From contig SVNZ01000003.1 of the NCBI GenBank assembly GCA_015066595.1, positions 112,836 through 176,835 on the forward strand: a stretch of DNA of 64,000 bases, in the 5' to 3' direction. The stretch is from Oscillospiraceae bacterium (lineage in GTDB: Bacteria > Bacillota > Clostridia > Oscillospirales > Acutalibacteraceae). Every line of letters begins with the position of its first letter. Position 1 is the stretch's first letter. A program made the position numbers and the translations under genes. Below, piece by piece: positions 18,177 through 28,023 of this stretch. The notes below the pieces were generated by a model that was not told where the DNA came from, did not search any database, and saw nothing but the letters and a program-made list of their open reading frames with translations.

Positions 18177-18905
18177 ATGCTGAAATATTCTATCGAAGGC
18201 GGTAGCCTTCCTGTTGTTATTTGTTACCCAGAGGCTAACCAGACCATCTGTACAGAGAGTGGTTCTATGAGTTGGATGAGTCCTAATATGAAGATGGAAA
18301 CCAACTCAGGTGGCGGATTTAAGAAGATGATGGGCAGACTTTTCTCAGGCGATTCAATCTTTATGAACGAATACACCCCACAAGGTGCTAGCGGTATGAT
18401 AGCTTTTGCATCGAGCTTCCCTGGTTCTATCATCCCATATGAGGTTACTCCGGGCAACGGCATCATCGTGCAAAAATCAGGTTTCTTAGCAATGGAAAAG
18501 GGTCTTGAGCTGTCAATATACTTCCAGAAGAAGCTCGGCAAAGGTTTCTTCGGTGGTGAAGGCTTTATTATGCAGAAGATTACAGGTAACGGCTTAGTTT
18601 TCCTTGAAATCGATGGTTACTGCAAGGAATACGAGCTCGGCGTAGGTGAGAGCATCGTATTAGATACTGGCTACCTTGCTGCTATGAGCGAGAGCTGTAC
18701 TATGGATATTCAGTCTGTCAAGGGTGTCAAGAATATGCTCTTCGGTGGCGAGGGATTATTCAACACTGTAGTTACAGGCCCTGGTAAGGTTTATGTTCAG
18801 TCTATGCCTGTTATCAACACAGCAAATGCTTTGTCACCATATTTGCAGACAAATTCGTCAGGAGATAGCGGTGGCGGAATCAACATCAAACTTGGCGGTG
18901 ACTAA
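18177..18905 (+). CDS. AIM24/TIGR00266-family protein
   Basis: ESGSMSWMS, GESIF-like GDSIFMNEY, FGGEGF repeats, GPGKVYVQSMP. Confidence 0.88.
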   Translation: MLKYSIEGGSLPVVICYPEANQTICTESGSMSWMSPNMKMETNSGGGFKKMMGRLFSGDSIFMNEYTPQGASGMIAFASSFPGSIIPYEVTPGNGIIVQKSGFLAMEKGLELSIYFQKKLGKGFFGGEGFIMQKITGNGLVFLEIDGYCKEYELGVGESIVLDTGYLAAMSESCTMDIQSVKGVKNMLFGGEGLFNTVVTGPGKVYVQSMPVINTANALSPYLQTNSSGDSGGGINIKLGGD

Positions 18906-19039: not shown

Positions 19040-20221
19040 GTGATGAAAAAATTGTTAGTAGTTTTACTCGCAATAACTCTTGTTATGATGTCAGTAGTGC
19101 CTGCATTTGCTGCTGAAAATGATGTAGTAGCTACACAGAGCTCACCTGACCAGGTGACACCTGACTCAAGAGTACAGCAGTTATACAATGCTTTTGTAGA
19201 ACTGAAAAACACGCTTTATGGTAATGATCTTACAGCCTTTTTGAACGCATACGATGATTTTGAAGCAATCTCTACATCTATTGATACGCTCACTGACGAA
19301 GAGGCAGAAGAGCTTGTTGCACTTTTTGGTTCTGATATGGAAGGTATGGTAGAAGAACTGCTTACTGTTGCGATAGTTGCGGGCTTTGTGAAGGGTGTGT
19401 ATTTGGACTGTGAAGAGTTCAAAGCTACCCCTAACACATCAACAGCTGTTATGGTTATAGAAGATTTAGAGTCCATAGCTTTTAACGAAGAAATCGAAGA
19501 TGATGAGTTTTCAAAAGCTATCAGAAATCTGATTTCTGATATTGATGAGGTTTATAAAGAAGCTCTTGAGTATAAGCCTACTGATAGAGTGTATAAGTTG
19601 TATGAAAGTTACTATGATATGTTAGACCTGCTAGAGTGGTATTTATACGAAGACCTTGAAGAAACAACCAAGGAGTTTCGTGATGCTTACAATAGTATAG
19701 ATGAGTTTACTGATGAAGAAAAAGACCAGATCAGTGCGCTTATCGGACTACCGTTTGAAGAAGCTATTGGACTTATGGTTAGTGACTATATAGAAGCGTG
19801 TATAATAGTAGATACAGGCAAGATTTATGATGCATATATTGACAACCCATGCAAAGATACAGCACAGGCACTTGTGGATCAGTATGACGGAATTTTTAAT
19901 GACCCTAGCTTTAGTGATGAATATCTTGAGGACCTTATAGGTGAATACTTCTATGACTTAGAGGAGCTTTATCTGGAAGCGAAAGCGATGCTTGAGAAAG
20001 ACGACGATGATAGTGACGATGAGGATGATACAGTAAGCGGTGGAGATAAAGAAGACAAGAAGCCACAAAAAGGTGCGGATTCAACAAAGACAGAAGAATC
20101 AACAAAAGTGAATACAGCTGCTGTAAAAACAGGTGATACTACAATTGCTGTTATCTATTTTGCATTTTCACTCATCGTACTTGCAGTTTTCTGTTTTATT
20201 AAAAAAAGAACCAATAACTAA
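19040..20221 (+). CDS. Secreted, very acidic protein with two tandem helical repeats and a sortase-like C-terminus
   Basis: Signal peptide AFA-A; internal repeat; VKTGD + TM + KKR. Confidence 0.75.
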   Translation: MMKKLLVVLLAITLVMMSVVPAFAAENDVVATQSSPDQVTPDSRVQQLYNAFVELKNTLYGNDLTAFLNAYDDFEAISTSIDTLTDEEAEELVALFGSDMEGMVEELLTVAIVAGFVKGVYLDCEEFKATPNTSTAVMVIEDLESIAFNEEIEDDEFSKAIRNLISDIDEVYKEALEYKPTDRVYKLYESYYDMLDLLEWYLYEDLEETTKEFRDAYNSIDEFTDEEKDQISALIGLPFEEAIGLMVSDYIEACIIVDTGKIYDAYIDNPCKDTAQALVDQYDGIFNDPSFSDEYLEDLIGEYFYDLEELYLEAKAMLEKDDDDSDDEDDTVSGGDKEDKKPQKGADSTKTEESTKVNTAAVKTGDTTIAVIYFAFSLIVLAVFCFIKKRTNN

Positions 20222-21983: not shown

Positions 21984-22016
21984 AAGGCAGTGGAGATTTT
22001 CTCTACTGTCTTTTTT
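21984..22016 (+). terminator. Intrinsic terminator
   Basis: AAGGCAGTGGAGA / TCTCTACTGTCTT plus T-run. Confidence 0.75.
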
Positions 22017-22247
22017 ACATATAAATTCGACTGTGTTTTGTGTGTTTTGCACAGTAGGTTGTATGTTTTGCACAAAGAGATTACTTCATAATTATTCAAT
22101 GGGTCAAACTTTTTTTATGTGATATCATTTTTATTGTATATTTTGTCCATTTGTAATATAATTATAAGGTGTTCACATAGGGAATTGTGAAAAATGACCG
22201 AAAAAGTTATTTTCGCTTTTCCTACAACGAAAGGAGTTGTTTTCATT

Positions 22248-24323
22248 ATGAAACAATATGACGCAAAACACATACTTAATATCGCTATGGCGGGTCATTC
22301 GGGCGCAGGTAAAACATCTGTTGCAGAGGCTATGCTGTATCTATCAAAGGCTTCTGACAGACTCGGTAAGATTTCCGATGGCAACACAATGCTCGACTAT
22401 GACGCTGAAGAAATAAAGAGAAAGGTTTCTGTACTTACAGCAGTTGCACCGGTTGAGTGGAAAAATATGAAAATCAACCTTATCGACACTCCTGGTCTTT
22501 TTGACTTTGAGGGTGGTATCTGTGAGGGCTATCGTGCGGCTGAAACAGCTATGATCGTTGTATCAGCTAAAGACGGTGTCAATGTTGGTACAGAAAAAGC
22601 AGTTAAAGCTGCTGACAAAGCTGGTCTTACAAAGATTTTCTTTGTAAACGGTGTGTGTGATGAGGATGCTCGTTTCTACCGTGTACTTGAAGATCTCAAA
22701 GCTACATTCGGTCCGTCCGTATGTCCTGTTATCGTTCCTCATATCGAAAACGGTCAGGCTAATACATACATCAACCTATTTGAGTACAAGGCTTATACTT
22801 ATGACAAGTCTGCTAACGCTACTCCATCTGATATTTTACCTGAGATGGGTGACAGACTCGAGGGACTTCGAGAAGCTATCAAAGAAGCTGTTGCTGAAAC
22901 ATCTGAAGAGCTCATGGAGAAGTTCTTTGAGGGTGAAGAGTTCACTCCTGAAGAAATTATCTTAGGTGTAAGTCAGGGTGTAAAAGACGGTTCTCTTTGT
23001 CCTGTATTCTGTGGTGACGCTCACTCTACGTTTGGTATCGAGCAGTTTATGAACTCACTTTCATGGCTTGCTCCTACTGCTGCTGACAAGGGCGCAGAAG
23101 TAGCTGTTGACGTCAACGGTGATCCTGTTGACATCGCTGTCAACGAAGCAGGCGCTGCTGCTGCAGTTGTATTTAAGACTGTTGCTGACCCATTTGTTGG
23201 TAAGCTTTCATACTTCAAGGTGGTTTCAGGTAAGGTTTCTACTGAATCCCCACTTGTTAATATGCGTACAGGCAAGGAAGAGCGTATCACTAAGGTTTTG
23301 ACCGTTAAAGGTAAGAAGCAGGAAGACGCACAGTACATCGGCGCAGGTGATATCGGTGCTATTCCAAAGCTTCAAGCTACTGTAACAGGTGACACTCTCT
23401 GTGCTCCAACACGCCGAGTTATCTTAGACGGCGTTGACTATCCTGCTCCATCATTCTCAATGGCTATGTATCCAAAGAAGAAGGGCGAAGAAGACAAGGT
23501 CGCACAGGGCCTCGTTCGACTTGCAGAAGAAGATCCTACTATCAAGTTTGTCAACAACTCTGAAACAAAAGAAATGGTTGTTTCAGGTATGGGTGAACAG
23601 CATTTAGATGTTGTTGTATCAAAGCTCAAGAATAAATTTAACGTAGAAGTAGAACTCAAACAGCCTAAGGTTGCATATAGAGAAACTATCCGTTCAACAG
23701 CTGATGTACAGGGTCGTCACAAGAAGCAGTCCGGTGGTAGTGGTCAGTTCGGTGATGTATGGATCAAGTTTGAGCCATGTGATAGCGATTCACTCGAGTT
23801 TGAAGTACAGGTTGTCGGCGGTTCTGTTCCAAAGCAGTTCTATCCGGCTGTTGAAAAGGGTCTTAGAGATTCTATCAAGAAGGGTCCACTCGCTGGCTAC
23901 CCTGTAGTAGGCGTTAAGGCTATCCTTCACGATGGTTCTTCTCATCCTGTTGATTCTAACGAAATGGCGTTCAAGATGGCAGCACAGATCGCTTTCAAGA
24001 ACGGTATCCCACAGGCTAAACCTACTTTGCTTGAGCCTATCGGTGCTCTTAAAGCTAACGTTCCTGATGCTAATATGGGCGATATCATGGGCGAAGTCAA
24101 CAAGCGCAGAGGTCGAGTACTCGGTATGAACGTGGGCGAAGACGGTATGCAGATTGTTGAAGCTGAAGTGCCTATGGCTGAGATGGCTGACTTTTCTGTA
24201 TATATGCGTCAGGTGACACAGGGTAGAGGCTCATTCTCATTTGAGTTTGAGCGTTATGAAGACGCACCTGCACAGGTTTCAGCAAAAGTTATCGAAGAAG
24301 CTAAAGCTAACGCAGAAGACTAA
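22248..24323 (+). CDS. Elongation factor G paralog (EF-G2-like) with degenerate G-motifs
   Basis: Five-domain EF-G layout (HKKQSGGSGQFGDV, DGSSHPVDSNEMAF, LLEPI); G1 GHSGAGKT, G3 DTPGL, G4 NGVC. Confidence 0.92.
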   Translation: MKQYDAKHILNIAMAGHSGAGKTSVAEAMLYLSKASDRLGKISDGNTMLDYDAEEIKRKVSVLTAVAPVEWKNMKINLIDTPGLFDFEGGICEGYRAAETAMIVVSAKDGVNVGTEKAVKAADKAGLTKIFFVNGVCDEDARFYRVLEDLKATFGPSVCPVIVPHIENGQANTYINLFEYKAYTYDKSANATPSDILPEMGDRLEGLREAIKEAVAETSEELMEKFFEGEEFTPEEIILGVSQGVKDGSLCPVFCGDAHSTFGIEQFMNSLSWLAPTAADKGAEVAVDVNGDPVDIAVNEAGAAAAVVFKTVADPFVGKLSYFKVVSGKVSTESPLVNMRTGKEERITKVLTVKGKKQEDAQYIGAGDIGAIPKLQATVTGDTLCAPTRRVILDGVDYPAPSFSMAMYPKKKGEEDKVAQGLVRLAEEDPTIKFVNNSETKEMVVSGMGEQHLDVVVSKLKNKFNVEVELKQPKVAYRETIRSTADVQGRHKKQSGGSGQFGDVWIKFEPCDSDSLEFEVQVVGGSVPKQFYPAVEKGLRDSIKKGPLAGYPVVGVKAILHDGSSHPVDSNEMAFKMAAQIAFKNGIPQAKPTLLEPIGALKANVPDANMGDIMGEVNKRRGRVLGMNVGEDGMQIVEAEVPMAEMADFSVYMRQVTQGRGSFSFEFERYEDAPAQVSAKVIEEAKANAED

Positions 24324-24340
24324 TACAAAATCGATAAATT

Positions 24341-24406
24341 AAGGCACCTGTTATTTCAGGTGCCTTGTTTGCATATAAAAACCCCGCGTGGATATTCACG
24401 CGGGGT
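24341..24406. terminator. Two hairpins between the convergent EF-G paralog and gpmI
   Basis: AAGGCACCTG/CAGGTGCCTT and ACCCCGCGTG/CACGCGGGGT. Confidence 0.8.
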
Positions 24407-24427: not shown

Positions 24428-25942
24428 TTACTTAATAAGTGACTTGCCTGTCATTTCAACCGGCTGTGGAAGATCAAGAATCTCAAGCATAGTCGGTGCG
24501 ATATCAGCAAGACAACCGCCACTTCTTAATTCACAGTCCTTGCCGACCACAACAAATGGAACAGGGTTGGTTGTATGAGCTGTGAATGGTGAACCGTCTA
24601 CGTCATACATTTTGTCAGCGTTACCATGGTCAGCAGTGATGAGTGAGATACCACCCATCTCTTTTACTGCATCAGTCACAGCTTTGACACCCTTGTCAAC
24701 AGCTTCGACAGCTTTGACTGCTGCTTCGAAGATACCTGTGTGACCAACCATATCGCAGTTAGCAAAGTTAAGGATAATAACATCGTATTTGCCACTCTTT
24801 ACAGCTTCAACGCACTTGTCAGTAACTTCGTAAGCGCTCATATGAGGCTGGAGATCATATGTTGCGACCTTTGGAGAAGCAACGAGAATTCTGTCTTCGC
24901 CGTCGTACTGCTTTTCAACACCACCGTTGAAGAAGAATGTAACGTGAGCATACTTTTCTGTTTCAGCGATTCTAAGCTGTGTTTTGCCCGCTTTTGAAAG
25001 ATACTCACCCAAAGTGTTTTCTAAACTCTGTGGCTTAAAAGCAACCTCAACATTAGGCATAGTAGCATCGTACTGAGTCATACAAACATAGGTGAGAGGG
25101 AAGAAGCCTAATCTTCTCTCAAAGGCTGAAAATTCTTCGTCAACGAAAGTACGAGTGATTTCTCGTGCTCTGTCAGGGCGGAAGTTGAAGAATACAACTG
25201 AGTCACCCTCTGATATTCTCTTTGTACCCTCAATTACAGTAGGGATAACAAACTCGTCAGTGACGTCGTTTTCATAAGATTTAGCCACTGCGTCTACAGC
25301 ACAAGCGTTATGTTCGCCCTCACCGTAAACCATAGCAGCATAAGCTTTTTCTACACGCTCGAAGCGGTTATCTCTATCCATAGCGTAGTATCTGCCCATA
25401 ACTGATGCGATTTTACCTACGCCGATTTCGTTCATCTTTTCTACGCACTGTGCGACAAAATCTTTACCGCTTGACGGTGGAACATCACGTCCGTCCAGGA
25501 ATGCATGAACAAAAACGTCATTAAGACCTTTCTTTTTAGCCATCTCAAGGATACCGTAAAGATGAGAGTTGTGAGAGTGAACACCACCATCTGACAGCAG
25601 ACCGAAAAGGTGAAGTGATGTACCATTTTTCAGTGCATTGTCCATAGCAAGGTTGAGTGCCTTGTTTTGAAAGAAATCACCGTCTTCTATAGACTTTGTG
25701 ATTCTTGTCAGCTCCTGATATACAATACGACCTGCACCCATGTTAGTGTGACCAACTTCAGAGTTTCCCATCTGACCATCAGGCAGACCAACGTCCATAC
25801 CTGATGCACCAATCTGAGTGATAGGGTTAGAGCTGAAAATCTCATCAAGTGCCGGAGTGCTTGCAGCTTTGATAGCGTTGCCATCAACAGGAGCCACTCC
25901 AAAGCCATCCATAATAATCAAAGCAAGTGGTTTTTTTGCCAT
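24428..25942 (-). CDS. gpmI: 2,3-bisphosphoglycerate-independent phosphoglycerate mutase
   Basis: IIMDGFG, GQMGNSEVGH, FRPDRARE, NFANCDMVGHTG, TADHGNA. Confidence 0.98.
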   Translation of the reverse strand: MAKKPLALIIMDGFGVAPVDGNAIKAASTPALDEIFSSNPITQIGASGMDVGLPDGQMGNSEVGHTNMGAGRIVYQELTRITKSIEDGDFFQNKALNLAMDNALKNGTSLHLFGLLSDGGVHSHNSHLYGILEMAKKKGLNDVFVHAFLDGRDVPPSSGKDFVAQCVEKMNEIGVGKIASVMGRYYAMDRDNRFERVEKAYAAMVYGEGEHNACAVDAVAKSYENDVTDEFVIPTVIEGTKRISEGDSVVFFNFRPDRAREITRTFVDEEFSAFERRLGFFPLTYVCMTQYDATMPNVEVAFKPQSLENTLGEYLSKAGKTQLRIAETEKYAHVTFFFNGGVEKQYDGEDRILVASPKVATYDLQPHMSAYEVTDKCVEAVKSGKYDVIILNFANCDMVGHTGIFEAAVKAVEAVDKGVKAVTDAVKEMGGISLITADHGNADKMYDVDGSPFTAHTTNPVPFVVVGKDCELRSGGCLADIAPTMLEILDLPQPVEMTGKSLIK

Positions 25943-25968
25943 TGTAAAAATCCTCTCGAAAAAAGTAA

Positions 25969-26736
25969 TTATTTGCTTGCAGCTTCAACGATAGCAGCAA
26001 ATTTTTCAGCAACAAGTGAAGCACCGCCGATAAGACCACCGTCAACATTCTCTTTAGAGAGAAGCTCCTGGGCATTAGCATCGTTCATAGAGCCACCGTA
26101 CTGGATAGTAACGCTCTGTGCACATTTTTCACAGTAAAGGTCAGCGAGCACATTACGGATGATAGCACAAACTTCTTCAGCCTGATCTGCAGTTGCTGTA
26201 AGACCTGTGCCGATAGCCCATACAGGCTCATATGCGATAACAATTCTGCTAAGCTCTTCAGCAGAAACACCCTGTAAAGCAACCTTAGTCTGAAGTGAAA
26301 CTGTCTCAGCTGTGATGCCCTGCTCACGCTCTTTTAAAAGTTCACCTACGCAAAGGATAACTGTAAGACCTGCATCAAGTGCAGCACGTACTCTGCTGTT
26401 TACTGTTTCGTCAGTTTCACCGAAGTACTGTCTGCGTTCTGAGTGACCGATGATAACATACTCGATACCCATAGCTTTGAGCATATTTGCTGAAATTTCA
26501 CCGGTGAAAGCACCGCTTTCTGCCCAGTGGCAGTTTTCAGCACCGATTTTTACATTTGTGCCAGCTGTTGCTTCTAATGCTGTCTGTAAATCTACAAAAG
26601 GAACACAAGCGATAACATCGCAGTCTGCGTCCTTAACGAGTGGAGTGATCTGTGAGAGAAGCTCTTTAGCTTCAGCTGGGGTTTTGTTCATTTTCCAGTT
26701 GCCGGCAATGATAGCCTTTCTAACTGCTTTGTTCAT
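25969..26736 (-). CDS. tpiA: Triosephosphate isomerase
   Basis: AGNWKMN, IGHSERR, AYEPVWAIGTG, GGASL. Confidence 0.99.
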   Translation of the reverse strand: MNKAVRKAIIAGNWKMNKTPAEAKELLSQITPLVKDADCDVIACVPFVDLQTALEATAGTNVKIGAENCHWAESGAFTGEISANMLKAMGIEYVIIGHSERRQYFGETDETVNSRVRAALDAGLTVILCVGELLKEREQGITAETVSLQTKVALQGVSAEELSRIVIAYEPVWAIGTGLTATADQAEEVCAIIRNVLADLYCEKCAQSVTIQYGGSMNDANAQELLSKENVDGGLIGGASLVAEKFAAIVEAASK

Positions 26737-26814
26737 AGTAATTACCTCTTTATTAAAAAATATTTATTTCAAATTTAAGGGCGGAACTAAGTCCGCCCTA
26801 TCGTATATCAAAAA

Positions 26815-28023
26815 TTATTTGTCGCCGATAGCTGCGATACCAGGAAGAACCTTGCCTTCAAGATATTCGAGTGATGCACCGCCACCTGTTGAGATGTGGC
26901 TCATCTTGTCAGCAAAGCCGAGGTTGATAACAGCAGCAGCTGAGTCACCGCCACCGATGATTGTTGTAGCGTCAGTTTCAGCGAGCGCTTTTGCAACAGA
27001 GATAGTACCGTTAGCAAAGCAAGCATTCTCAGAAACGCCCATAGGACCGTTCCATACAACAGTCTTAGCGTTCTTTACAGCGTTAGCGTAAATCTCAGCT
27101 GTCTTAGGACCAATATCAAGACCCATGATGTCAGCAGGGATCTCACCTGTAGCGTAAACCTGTGTTTCAACAGGAGCATCGATAGGATCAGGGAAGTCTT
27201 TTGTGCATACAGCGTCAACAGGAAGGAGGAGCTCCTTGCCTAAAGACTTAGCTTTTTCAATCATCTCGAGGCAGTAGTCAAGCTTTGTATCATCAACGAG
27301 TGATGTACCAACTTCCTTGCCAAGAGCTTTTGCGAATGTGTATGACATACCACCACCGATGATAAGTGTGTCACACTTGTCAAGGAGGTTAGAAATAACG
27401 TTAAGTTTATCAGCAACCTTAGCGCCGCCTAAGATAGCAACGAAAGGACGAACAGGAGCCTCAACAGCGTTGCCGAGATAGTCAATTTCCTTCTGCATGA
27501 GGTAACCAACAGCAGTTTCTTTAATATGTTCTGTAACACCTACAGTTGAACAGTGAGCTCTGTGTGATGAACCGAAAGCATCCATTACGAAAACATCAGC
27601 AAGAGAAGCGAGTTCGCTCTTGAATGGCTCGAGGTTCTTTGTTTCTTCTTTTCTGAAACGTGTGTTCTGAAGAAGTACTACGTCGCCGTCTTTCATAGCT
27701 GCAACTGCCTTTTTAGCGTTCTCGCCAACAACTTCGTCATCATCAGCAAAAACAACCTCTTTGCCTAAGAGCTCTGAGAGTCTTACAGCAACAGGAGCTA
27801 AAGAGAACTTCTCTTCAGGACCGTTCTTTGGTTTGCCGAGATGTGAGCAAAGAATAAGCTTGCCACCATCTGCTAAGATCTTTTTGATTGTGTCTAAAGC
27901 AGCAGTGATTCTGTTATCGTTTGTGATAACGCCATCTTTGAGTGGTACGTTGAAGTCACAACGACACAGAACTTTTTTGCCAGCGAAGTTGATGTCATCA
28001 ACTGTGTACTTGTTGAGTTTCAT
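26815..28023 (-). CDS. pgk: Phosphoglycerate kinase
   Basis: [38 protein letters not shown]. Confidence 0.99.

Follow-up and report, generated by a model that had tools for sequence, protein, structure and literature searches.

A second elongation factor G with an altered G4/G5 base pocket in gut Acutalibacteraceae

The EF-G paralog and its locus

It was found that a 64,000-nucleotide stretch of DNA from an Oscillospiraceae bacterium of the family Acutalibacteraceae carries a second gene for elongation factor G (EF-G). This stretch (assembly GCA_015066595.1, contig SVNZ01000003.1, positions 112,836 to 176,835) is called the window, and positions are counted from its first letter. The coding sequence, at 22248-24323 (+), is an open frame of 691 codons uninterrupted by a stop codon. 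Its 691-residue product (P0001, hereafter the paralog) has the five EF-G domains of Pfam (GTP_EFTU, EF-G_D2, EFG_III, EFG_IV, and EFG_C) and is of the EFG II or EF-G2 type. The assembled genome comprises 15 contigs that total 1.73 Mb, with a completeness of 99%. The canonical fusA is on a different contig, where it stands between rpsG and tuf with rpoB-rpoC upstream, and its product shares only 36% identity with the paralog.

By its layout, the paralog gene is monocistronic and transcribed alone. A Shine-Dalgarno sequence, AAAGGAG (22230-22236, +), lies 11 nt before the ATG and is kept in orthologues. A candidate promoter, TTGTAT and TATAAT with a 17-nt spacer (22134-22162, +), was read from the sequence and is kept in nine orthologous upstream regions; since it does not reach the consensus threshold in the promoter scan, it should be regarded as putative. 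The alpha/beta-hydrolase gene upstream has a hairpin terminator at about 21987-22016. On the other side, terminator hairpins at 24341-24406 (24341-24368 and 24381-24406, not assigned to a strand) separate the paralog gene from the convergent gpmI-tpiA-pgk genes. The original prediction, made from the sequence of this locus, had described the gene as monocistronic and outside the fusA operon, and both its own hairpins and the position of fusA elsewhere in the genome bear this out. There is no conserved operon partner, the neighbours being common only to very close kin. An Rfam search of the 230-nt region upstream gave nothing relevant as a riboswitch or leader, and no mobile-element context was found around the gene.

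The G motifs were aligned residue by residue to EF-G of Thermus thermophilus and to the canonical EF-G of the genome itself (all positions on the + strand). G1, the P-loop, is GHSGAGKT (residues 16-23; 22293-22316) where the canonical sequence is AHIDAGKT. Gly16 replaces Ala, and the Ile and Asp of AHID, which contact the sarcin-ricin loop, are Ser and Gly, while the Walker A motif GxxxxGKT is intact. G2 in switch I is RKVS (residues 58-61; 22419-22430) instead of RGIT, with Ser replacing the Mg-binding Thr as in the RxxSI of the Clostridia subgroup of EFG II. G3 in switch II is DTPGL (residues 80-84; 22485-22499) instead of DTPGH, so that the catalytic His is Leu. G4 is NGVC (residues 134-137; 22647-22658) instead of NKMD: Lys has become Gly135 and Asp has become Cys137, and a new Asp138 stands one position after the lost Asp (region NGVC-D, residues 134-138; 22647-22661). 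G5 is GDAH (residues 256-259; 23013-23024) where canonical proteins have GSA or GTS, and the Ser of (G)SA has become Asp257; this position is Asp or Glu throughout the clade described below. In domain IV, loop I is HKKQSGGSGQFG (residues 491-502; 23718-23753), the tip that enters the decoding centre, and loop II is SSHPVDSN (residues 564-571; 23937-23960), which aligns with SYHEVDSS of T. thermophilus EF-G.

These alignments reproduce every motif reading of the original prediction from G1 to G5, and domains II-V are full-length and intact, as it had stated. It had also counted G1 as degenerate; the letters were right, but the Walker A motif is intact and its form is typical of EFG II. An AlphaFold2 model of the paralog has a mean predicted local distance difference test (pLDDT) score of 93.2 and a predicted template modelling (pTM) score of 0.86. 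Its template modelling (TM) score is 0.92 against ribosome-bound EF-G (7N2V and 7PJV), 0.91 against Mycobacterium smegmatis EF-G2 (9K0Z), 0.88 against Bacteroides thetaiotaomicron EF-G2 (8DMF), and 0.82 against T. thermophilus EF-G-2, which was at Foldseek rank 5.

Placement among EFG II proteins

The canonical EF-G of the genome scores 1176.7 bits against the canonical EF-G equivalog TIGR00484. The paralog scores 605.8 bits, under the cut-off of 659.4, and the model's AHIDAGKT, RGITI, DTPGH, and NKMD all differ in it. It reaches 554.5 bits against the Bacteroides EF-G2 model NF058620 (cut-off 1000) and 533.4 bits against the "EF-G-like protein EF-G2" model NF009377 (cut-off 890). As judged from these profiles and the tree below, the paralog is a member of the same subfamily as the two groups and an orthologue of neither. 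The "elongation factor G" subfamily model NF009381 gives 858 bits, above its cut-off of 583; since the canonical EF-G also scores 830 bits, this model does not discriminate between the paralogs.

A FastTree phylogeny of 176 rows combined the paralog and 22 orthologues from its order with 8 canonical EF-Gs and with 145 sequences from an exhaustive search, each of which represents a cluster at 50% identity. On one side of a branch with 100% support and a length of 0.55 are 9 canonical EF-G rows; on the other are 167 rows of EFG II type, the paralog among them. Two representatives of the Bacteroides-type EF-G2 (P0200 and P0221) are in the same large group. Among the representatives, B. thetaiotaomicron EF-G2 has its nearest match in P0200, with 582 bits against 7UVP, whose motifs are GSSGSGKT, YGYSV, DCPGS, and NQLD. 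The original prediction had called the paralog analogous to the B. thetaiotaomicron factor. The comparison is a good one, and the relation goes beyond analogy, for the two proteins belong to the same clade. By profile, tree, and selection, the paralog is a functional EFG II (EF-G2) member that has been kept alongside the canonical fusA.

The signatures of EFG II are known from a survey of EF-G subfamilies (Margus, Remm & Tenson 2011, PMC3150367). They include a Gly at the start of G1, the relaxation of RGITI to xxxSx with Ser retained (RxxSI in Clostridia), a loop I of domain IV that is more basic, a Leu after GKT[ST] at position 25, and the constant co-occurrence with another EF-G, usually EFG I. 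The acidic G' patch, G1, the Ser of G2, and DxPG are kept across the subfamily, and G4 NKxD and G5 gSAx are given as conserved (PMC3150367). The Clostridia sub-subgroup of that survey resembles the paralog in forming a clade apart from EFG I, in the canonical EF-G being always present, in the Gly of G1, in RxxS[IV] of G2, in the positive loop I with KKQSGG, and in the stand-alone gene. It differs in two respects: it has NKxD and gSAx where the paralog has NGVC-D and GDA, and it has the Leu25 signature where the paralog has Val (PMC3150367). Position 25 is Val in the sub-clade of the paralog and Leu, Val, or Ile in its relatives, while Gly16 is present. The lineage-specific departure of the paralog from the EFG II rule lies in G4 and G5, with NGVC and GDAH.

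Among 146 representatives, DTPGH was found in only three or four, one of which is a canonical EF-G. The others have Tyr, Phe, Leu, Asp, Asn, Ser, or other residues at the position of the catalytic His, and Leu is the usual residue among the relatives of the paralog. T. thermophilus EF-G-2 probably has Tyr there. With DTPGH nearly absent, and with DCPGS and Tyr in EF-G2 proteins already known, the missing catalytic His characterises the family as a whole and does not single out this gene. The Lys of G4 is also often replaced in the 146 representatives; the acid of G4 is kept in about 86%. In an alignment of 92 EFG II proteins, G21, E55, P82, and G83 are invariant, and H17, K22, T23, R38, G40, G45, D50, and D80 are at least 90% conserved. 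In the tips of domain IV, K492, K493, Q494, G496, G497, G499, Q500, and G502 of loop I are invariant or at least 90% conserved; H566, V568, and D569 of loop II are invariant, and S570 is at least 90% conserved. With the P-loop, switch I, DxPG, and the domain-IV tips conserved, EFG II keeps a triphosphate-sensing switch together with a decoding-centre element. Thus, the claim that multiple GTPase motifs are degenerate in this protein stands as a lineage-specific trait for G4 and G5, while the changes in G1 and G2 and the loss of His belong to the whole EFG II subfamily.

A lineage-specific block in G4 and G5

The changes in G4 and G5 form a block of four substitutions, K135G, D137C, S138D, and S257D, by which NKxD-S became NGxC-D and the SA of G5 became DA. 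A literature search found no description of the NGxC-D/GDA block. The nearest 120 clusters at 90% identity, which are 76-97% identical to the paralog, all have DTPGL, NG[VLI]C, and GDA. The sampled loci of at least 63% identity have NG[VLM][CAS]D with C[GV][DE]A, with a sole exception, and the more distant family members have [NTS][KR]xD and no acid in G5. The exception is an Acutalibacteraceae orthologue of 66% identity (L064; G079:C28:12531-14579). It has an apparently intermediate pocket, SKLE, in which Lys is kept and Asp is Glu, together with CGDG. This suggests that the acid of G5 preceded the loss of the Lys and Asp of G4.

In an IQ-TREE analysis, the NGxCD rows came together without exception as a single clade, whose support in the Shimodaira-Hasegawa-like approximate likelihood ratio test (SH-aLRT) is 99%. 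A second independent origin of NGxCD had been suggested by FastTree; it was rejected in view of the single IQ-TREE clade, and the FastTree placement is attributed to a long-branch effect. On the evidence of these trees and alignments, the block has a single origin inside Acutalibacteraceae, and all the sampled descendants carry it in fixed form.

When 98 members of the clade were compared with 62 other members of the family and order, six of the 691 sites were diagnostic, being near-fixed among the 98 and seldom present among the 62: G135, C137, D138, A171, D257, and Y398. Four of the six are in G4 or G5, D138 being the residue that adjoins G4. Thus, the signature of the clade is concentrated in the base-binding pocket. 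As for the remaining two, A171 (22758-22760) aligns with a Phe that is conserved where the G' subdomain begins, and Y398 (23439-23441) replaces the Phe of an F-P-x-P motif at the start of domain III.

The relatives of the organism are metagenome-assembled genomes from ruminant and other guts, named Ruminococcus sp. or Acutalibacteraceae. The motif block is also carried by cultured organisms, among them Anaeromassilibacillus senegalensis An867 (L097) and Scatolibacter rhodanostii Marseille-P3890 (L119). The gene was found in 73 of the 80 sampled genera of the family; its inheritance there is vertical and its presence near-universal. In five genomes of the family, which measure 1.1-2.0 Mb (G060, G080, G103, G074, and G095), there is only one EF-G-family gene at E <= 1e-60. 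Four of them are not larger than 1.4 Mb and one is closed. The paralog has thus been lost on repeated occasions, for the most part where the genomes of the family are smallest.

The ratio of nonsynonymous to synonymous substitution rates (dN/dS) was calculated by the Nei-Gojobori method against four close orthologues. It is 0.024-0.039 for the whole paralog, 0.015-0.038 for the G domain, and 0.031-0.042 for domains II-V; in the same genome pairs, it is 0.047-0.058 for the canonical fusA. The frame is intact in about 200 orthologues. The original prediction had counted pseudogenisation or relaxed selection, with a dN/dS near 1, among the findings that would overturn it. No sign of either was seen, the values of 0.02-0.04 being far from 1.

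The codon adaptation index (CAI), with tuf, fusA, and rpsG as the reference set, is 0.597 for the paralog. This is at the 94th percentile of about 1,390 crude open reading frames (ORFs), between rpoB and rpoC, and suggests fairly high expression. A rumen metaproteome study lists an "elongation factor G" of R. bromii, a wording that does not tell the paralogs apart. The highest CAI in the genome, 0.885, belongs to an ORF outside the window (C13:120602-120967). Its 121-residue product has a low-complexity N-terminus, is rich in Lys, Thr, and Ala, and looks like a histone-like or nucleoid protein.

Some other features of the surroundings were recorded. The glycolytic cluster pgk-tpiA-gpmI (24428-28023, -) converges on the paralog gene, an adjacency found only in very close relatives, and the CAI of its pgk, 0.727, is among the highest of the genome. 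Upstream of the candidate promoter, two direct copies of the 9-mer TTTTGCACA (22045-22053 and 22066-22074, +) lie 21 nt apart, and the GCACAA core at this site is kept in all nine orthologous upstream regions. The 9-mer occurs 10 times in the window (1.8 expected), the other copies being at 1344, 6602, 7441, 9493, 29552, 37830, 40592, and 51651, and the genome holds 85 copies against an expectation of about 13; since most of the genomic copies are inside coding ORFs, the excess may be compositional and not that of an operator. Farther upstream, a 242-residue AIM24-family protein (Pfam PF01987, E 4e-71) is encoded at 18177-18905 (+), followed by an ORF of 393 residues (19040-20221) that has no Pfam match.

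Proposed nucleotide use and role on the ribosome

What would this base pocket do? The P-loop Lys and Thr, the switch-I residues with the Mg-ligating Ser, and DxPG are conserved, dN/dS in the G domain is as low as 0.015-0.04, and D138 and D257 are fixed beside the lost residues. This indicates that the pocket has been rebuilt and is not dead. The original prediction had suggested from the loss of the G4 Lys that nucleotide binding itself may be impaired. With the phosphate-binding elements conserved and new acids fixed, that is not the best reading. Most likely, Asp257 and/or Asp138 replace the lost Asp of G4 by taking over its contact with the base, in which case guanine would still be read and guanine nucleotides would still be used.

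I consider that the paralog may bind a nucleoside triphosphate (NTP) and use it as a conformational switch to enter the A site of the ribosome as EF-G does, without the canonical His-catalysed, ribosome-stimulated hydrolysis of GTP. Its role would then be that of a slow, hydrolysis-independent translocase, such as has been reported of B. thetaiotaomicron EF-G2, or else that of a ribosome-occupying stress factor, such as has been reported of M. smegmatis EF-G2. I would give this a probability of roughly 60%. Since the paralog groups with the Bacteroides-type EF-G2 in the tree, a GTPase-deficient, ribosome-binding role is reasonable by homology. The domain-IV tips, which are of canonical sequence, slightly favour the translocase.

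The two model proteins resemble the paralog in different ways. B. thetaiotaomicron EF-G2 (7UVP and 8DMF) is of the same EFG II clade, has no catalytic His (DCPGS), has lost the G4 Lys (NQLD), and has a non-canonical G5; on the other hand, it keeps the G4 Asp, has an insertion in domain IV, and is only about 35-40% identical to the paralog. It is cited as translocating without GTP hydrolysis (PMC12775393), and is reported to be induced when carbon is limiting, by way of the carbohydrate utilization regulator Cur. M. smegmatis EF-G2 (9K0Z and 9K10) is also of EFG II type, with its His replaced by Tyr and the sarcin-ricin-contacting P-loop residues altered. It has no ribosome-dependent GTPase activity and is reported to trap post-translocation ribosomes under stress and not to translocate (bioRxiv 10.64898/2026.05.25.727771). 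Unlike the paralog, it keeps both the Lys and Asp of G4 (TKLD), and its domain-IV loops are displaced, whereas the loop sequences of the paralog are canonical.

Several points weigh against the proposed hydrolysis-independent role or limit what the block can say about it. According to Connell 2007, as relayed in PMC3150367, T. thermophilus EF-G-2 (1WDT and 2DY1), an EFG II member like the paralog, hydrolyses GTP and sustains poly(Phe) synthesis. Thus, a sequence by itself is no proof of GTP independence, and the loss of His may not abolish hydrolysis. Given the five family genomes with a single EF-G gene, the function of the paralog is valuable but dispensable. The groups compared for diagnostic sites were defined by residues 135, 137, and 257, so that only D138, A171, and Y398 of the six sites are independent results. 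In a wider EFG II sample, 21 of the 24 rows in which the G4 Asp position is not acidic have an acid at the G5 Ser position, as against 5 of the 151 other rows; this covariation is suggestive only and underpowered, with independent pairs of 5 to 0 (sign test, p of about 0.06) and only 9-10 independent contrasts in the sample.

Did the G4/G5 replacement instead re-tune the paralog to a nucleotide other than GTP, that is, to ATP, to relaxed use of any NTP, or to an alarmone? This is possible but unlikely. Both guanine determinants of G4, the Lys and the Asp, are gone, an acid has been gained in the G5 loop, and the conserved phosphate-binding elements make it probable that some NTP is bound. In experiments with SpoIVA and Era, the loss of NKxD together with an acidic residue in G5 (SxE) was sufficient to shift the preference from GTP to ATP (PMC7952092). 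SpoIVA underwent such a shift in its descent from an Era-like GTPase, and YchF shows a change of similar kind. SpoIVA/Era and YchF, which are ATP-using descendants of TRAFAC GTPases, share with the paralog the loss of the G4 Lys and Asp, the gain of an acid in the G5 loop, and a kept P-loop; however, they are of unrelated TRAFAC families, have the acid at another G5 position, and are not ribosomal translocases, so that they provide a mechanistic precedent only (PMC7952092). The acid of the paralog stands at the Ser of SA and not at the position of the SpoIVA SxE, and an Asp or Glu there could equally restore the contacts with N1 and N2 of guanine. In addition, the Asn of G4 is retained. I am aware of no ATP-using member of the translational GTPase family.

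It is similarly improbable that the paralog is an active GTPase whose hydrolysis of GTP on the ribosome does without the His, and that it serves as an alternative translocase or recycling factor. Its switch I is highly conserved, EFG II as a whole keeps G1, the G2 Ser, DxPG, and the acidic G' patch (PMC3150367), and the activity reported for T. thermophilus EF-G-2 is a higher intrinsic GTPase with near-normal poly(Phe) synthesis (again as relayed in PMC3150367). Leu, however, is unable to position or activate the hydrolytic water, and the P-loop Ile and Asp that would contact the sarcin-ricin loop have been replaced. The H88Y substitution nearly abolishes the GTPase of M. smegmatis EF-G1 (bioRxiv 10.64898/2026.05.25.727771), and the EF-G2 proteins of M. 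smegmatis and B. thetaiotaomicron are reported to be without the activity.

A ribosome protection or rescue protein of the Tet(M)/Tet(O) type, which would displace an antibiotic or free stalled ribosomes, belongs to the same superfamily, has the same five-domain architecture, and is weakly matched by NCBIfam (tet_protect, NF012153). This candidate is very improbable and was rejected, because the score is 292 bits against a cut-off of 775 and the tree puts the paralog inside EFG II; moreover, the gene is vertical and near-universal in the family, lacks a mobile-element context, and encodes domain-IV loops of the EF-G type. The idea of a decaying or neutral duplicate, a pseudo-GTPase heading to loss, might appeal to the several canonical motif residues lost and to the five mostly small genomes without the paralog, but it is hardly tenable and is refuted by a dN/dS as low as that of fusA, the intact frames, the high CAI, and the fixation of the altered residues themselves, unless the protein is never expressed.

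A second EF-G without the catalytic His is already known biology, and the rebuilt G4/G5 pocket is the less ordinary feature. EF-G2-type paralogs are widespread, and the only three that have been studied behave differently from one another. The clade described here lives in abundant gut and rumen Clostridia, the Ruminococcus-like Acutalibacteraceae, in which genomes are small and selection on this gene is as tight as on fusA. It offers a natural experiment in which the textbook guanine-recognition residues have been exchanged en bloc, with the elements for phosphate binding and switching left fixed. The identity of the nucleotide would tell a relocated determinant of GTPase specificity from a changed nucleotide of a translation factor. 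If the nucleotide is not GTP, the paralog would be, to my knowledge, the first member of the translational GTPase superfamily known to be driven or gated by a non-guanine nucleotide, and a ribosomal factor of gut Clostridia would be coupled to another energy or signalling pool. Translocation by the paralog would bear on the debate over what GTP hydrolysis contributes to translocation.

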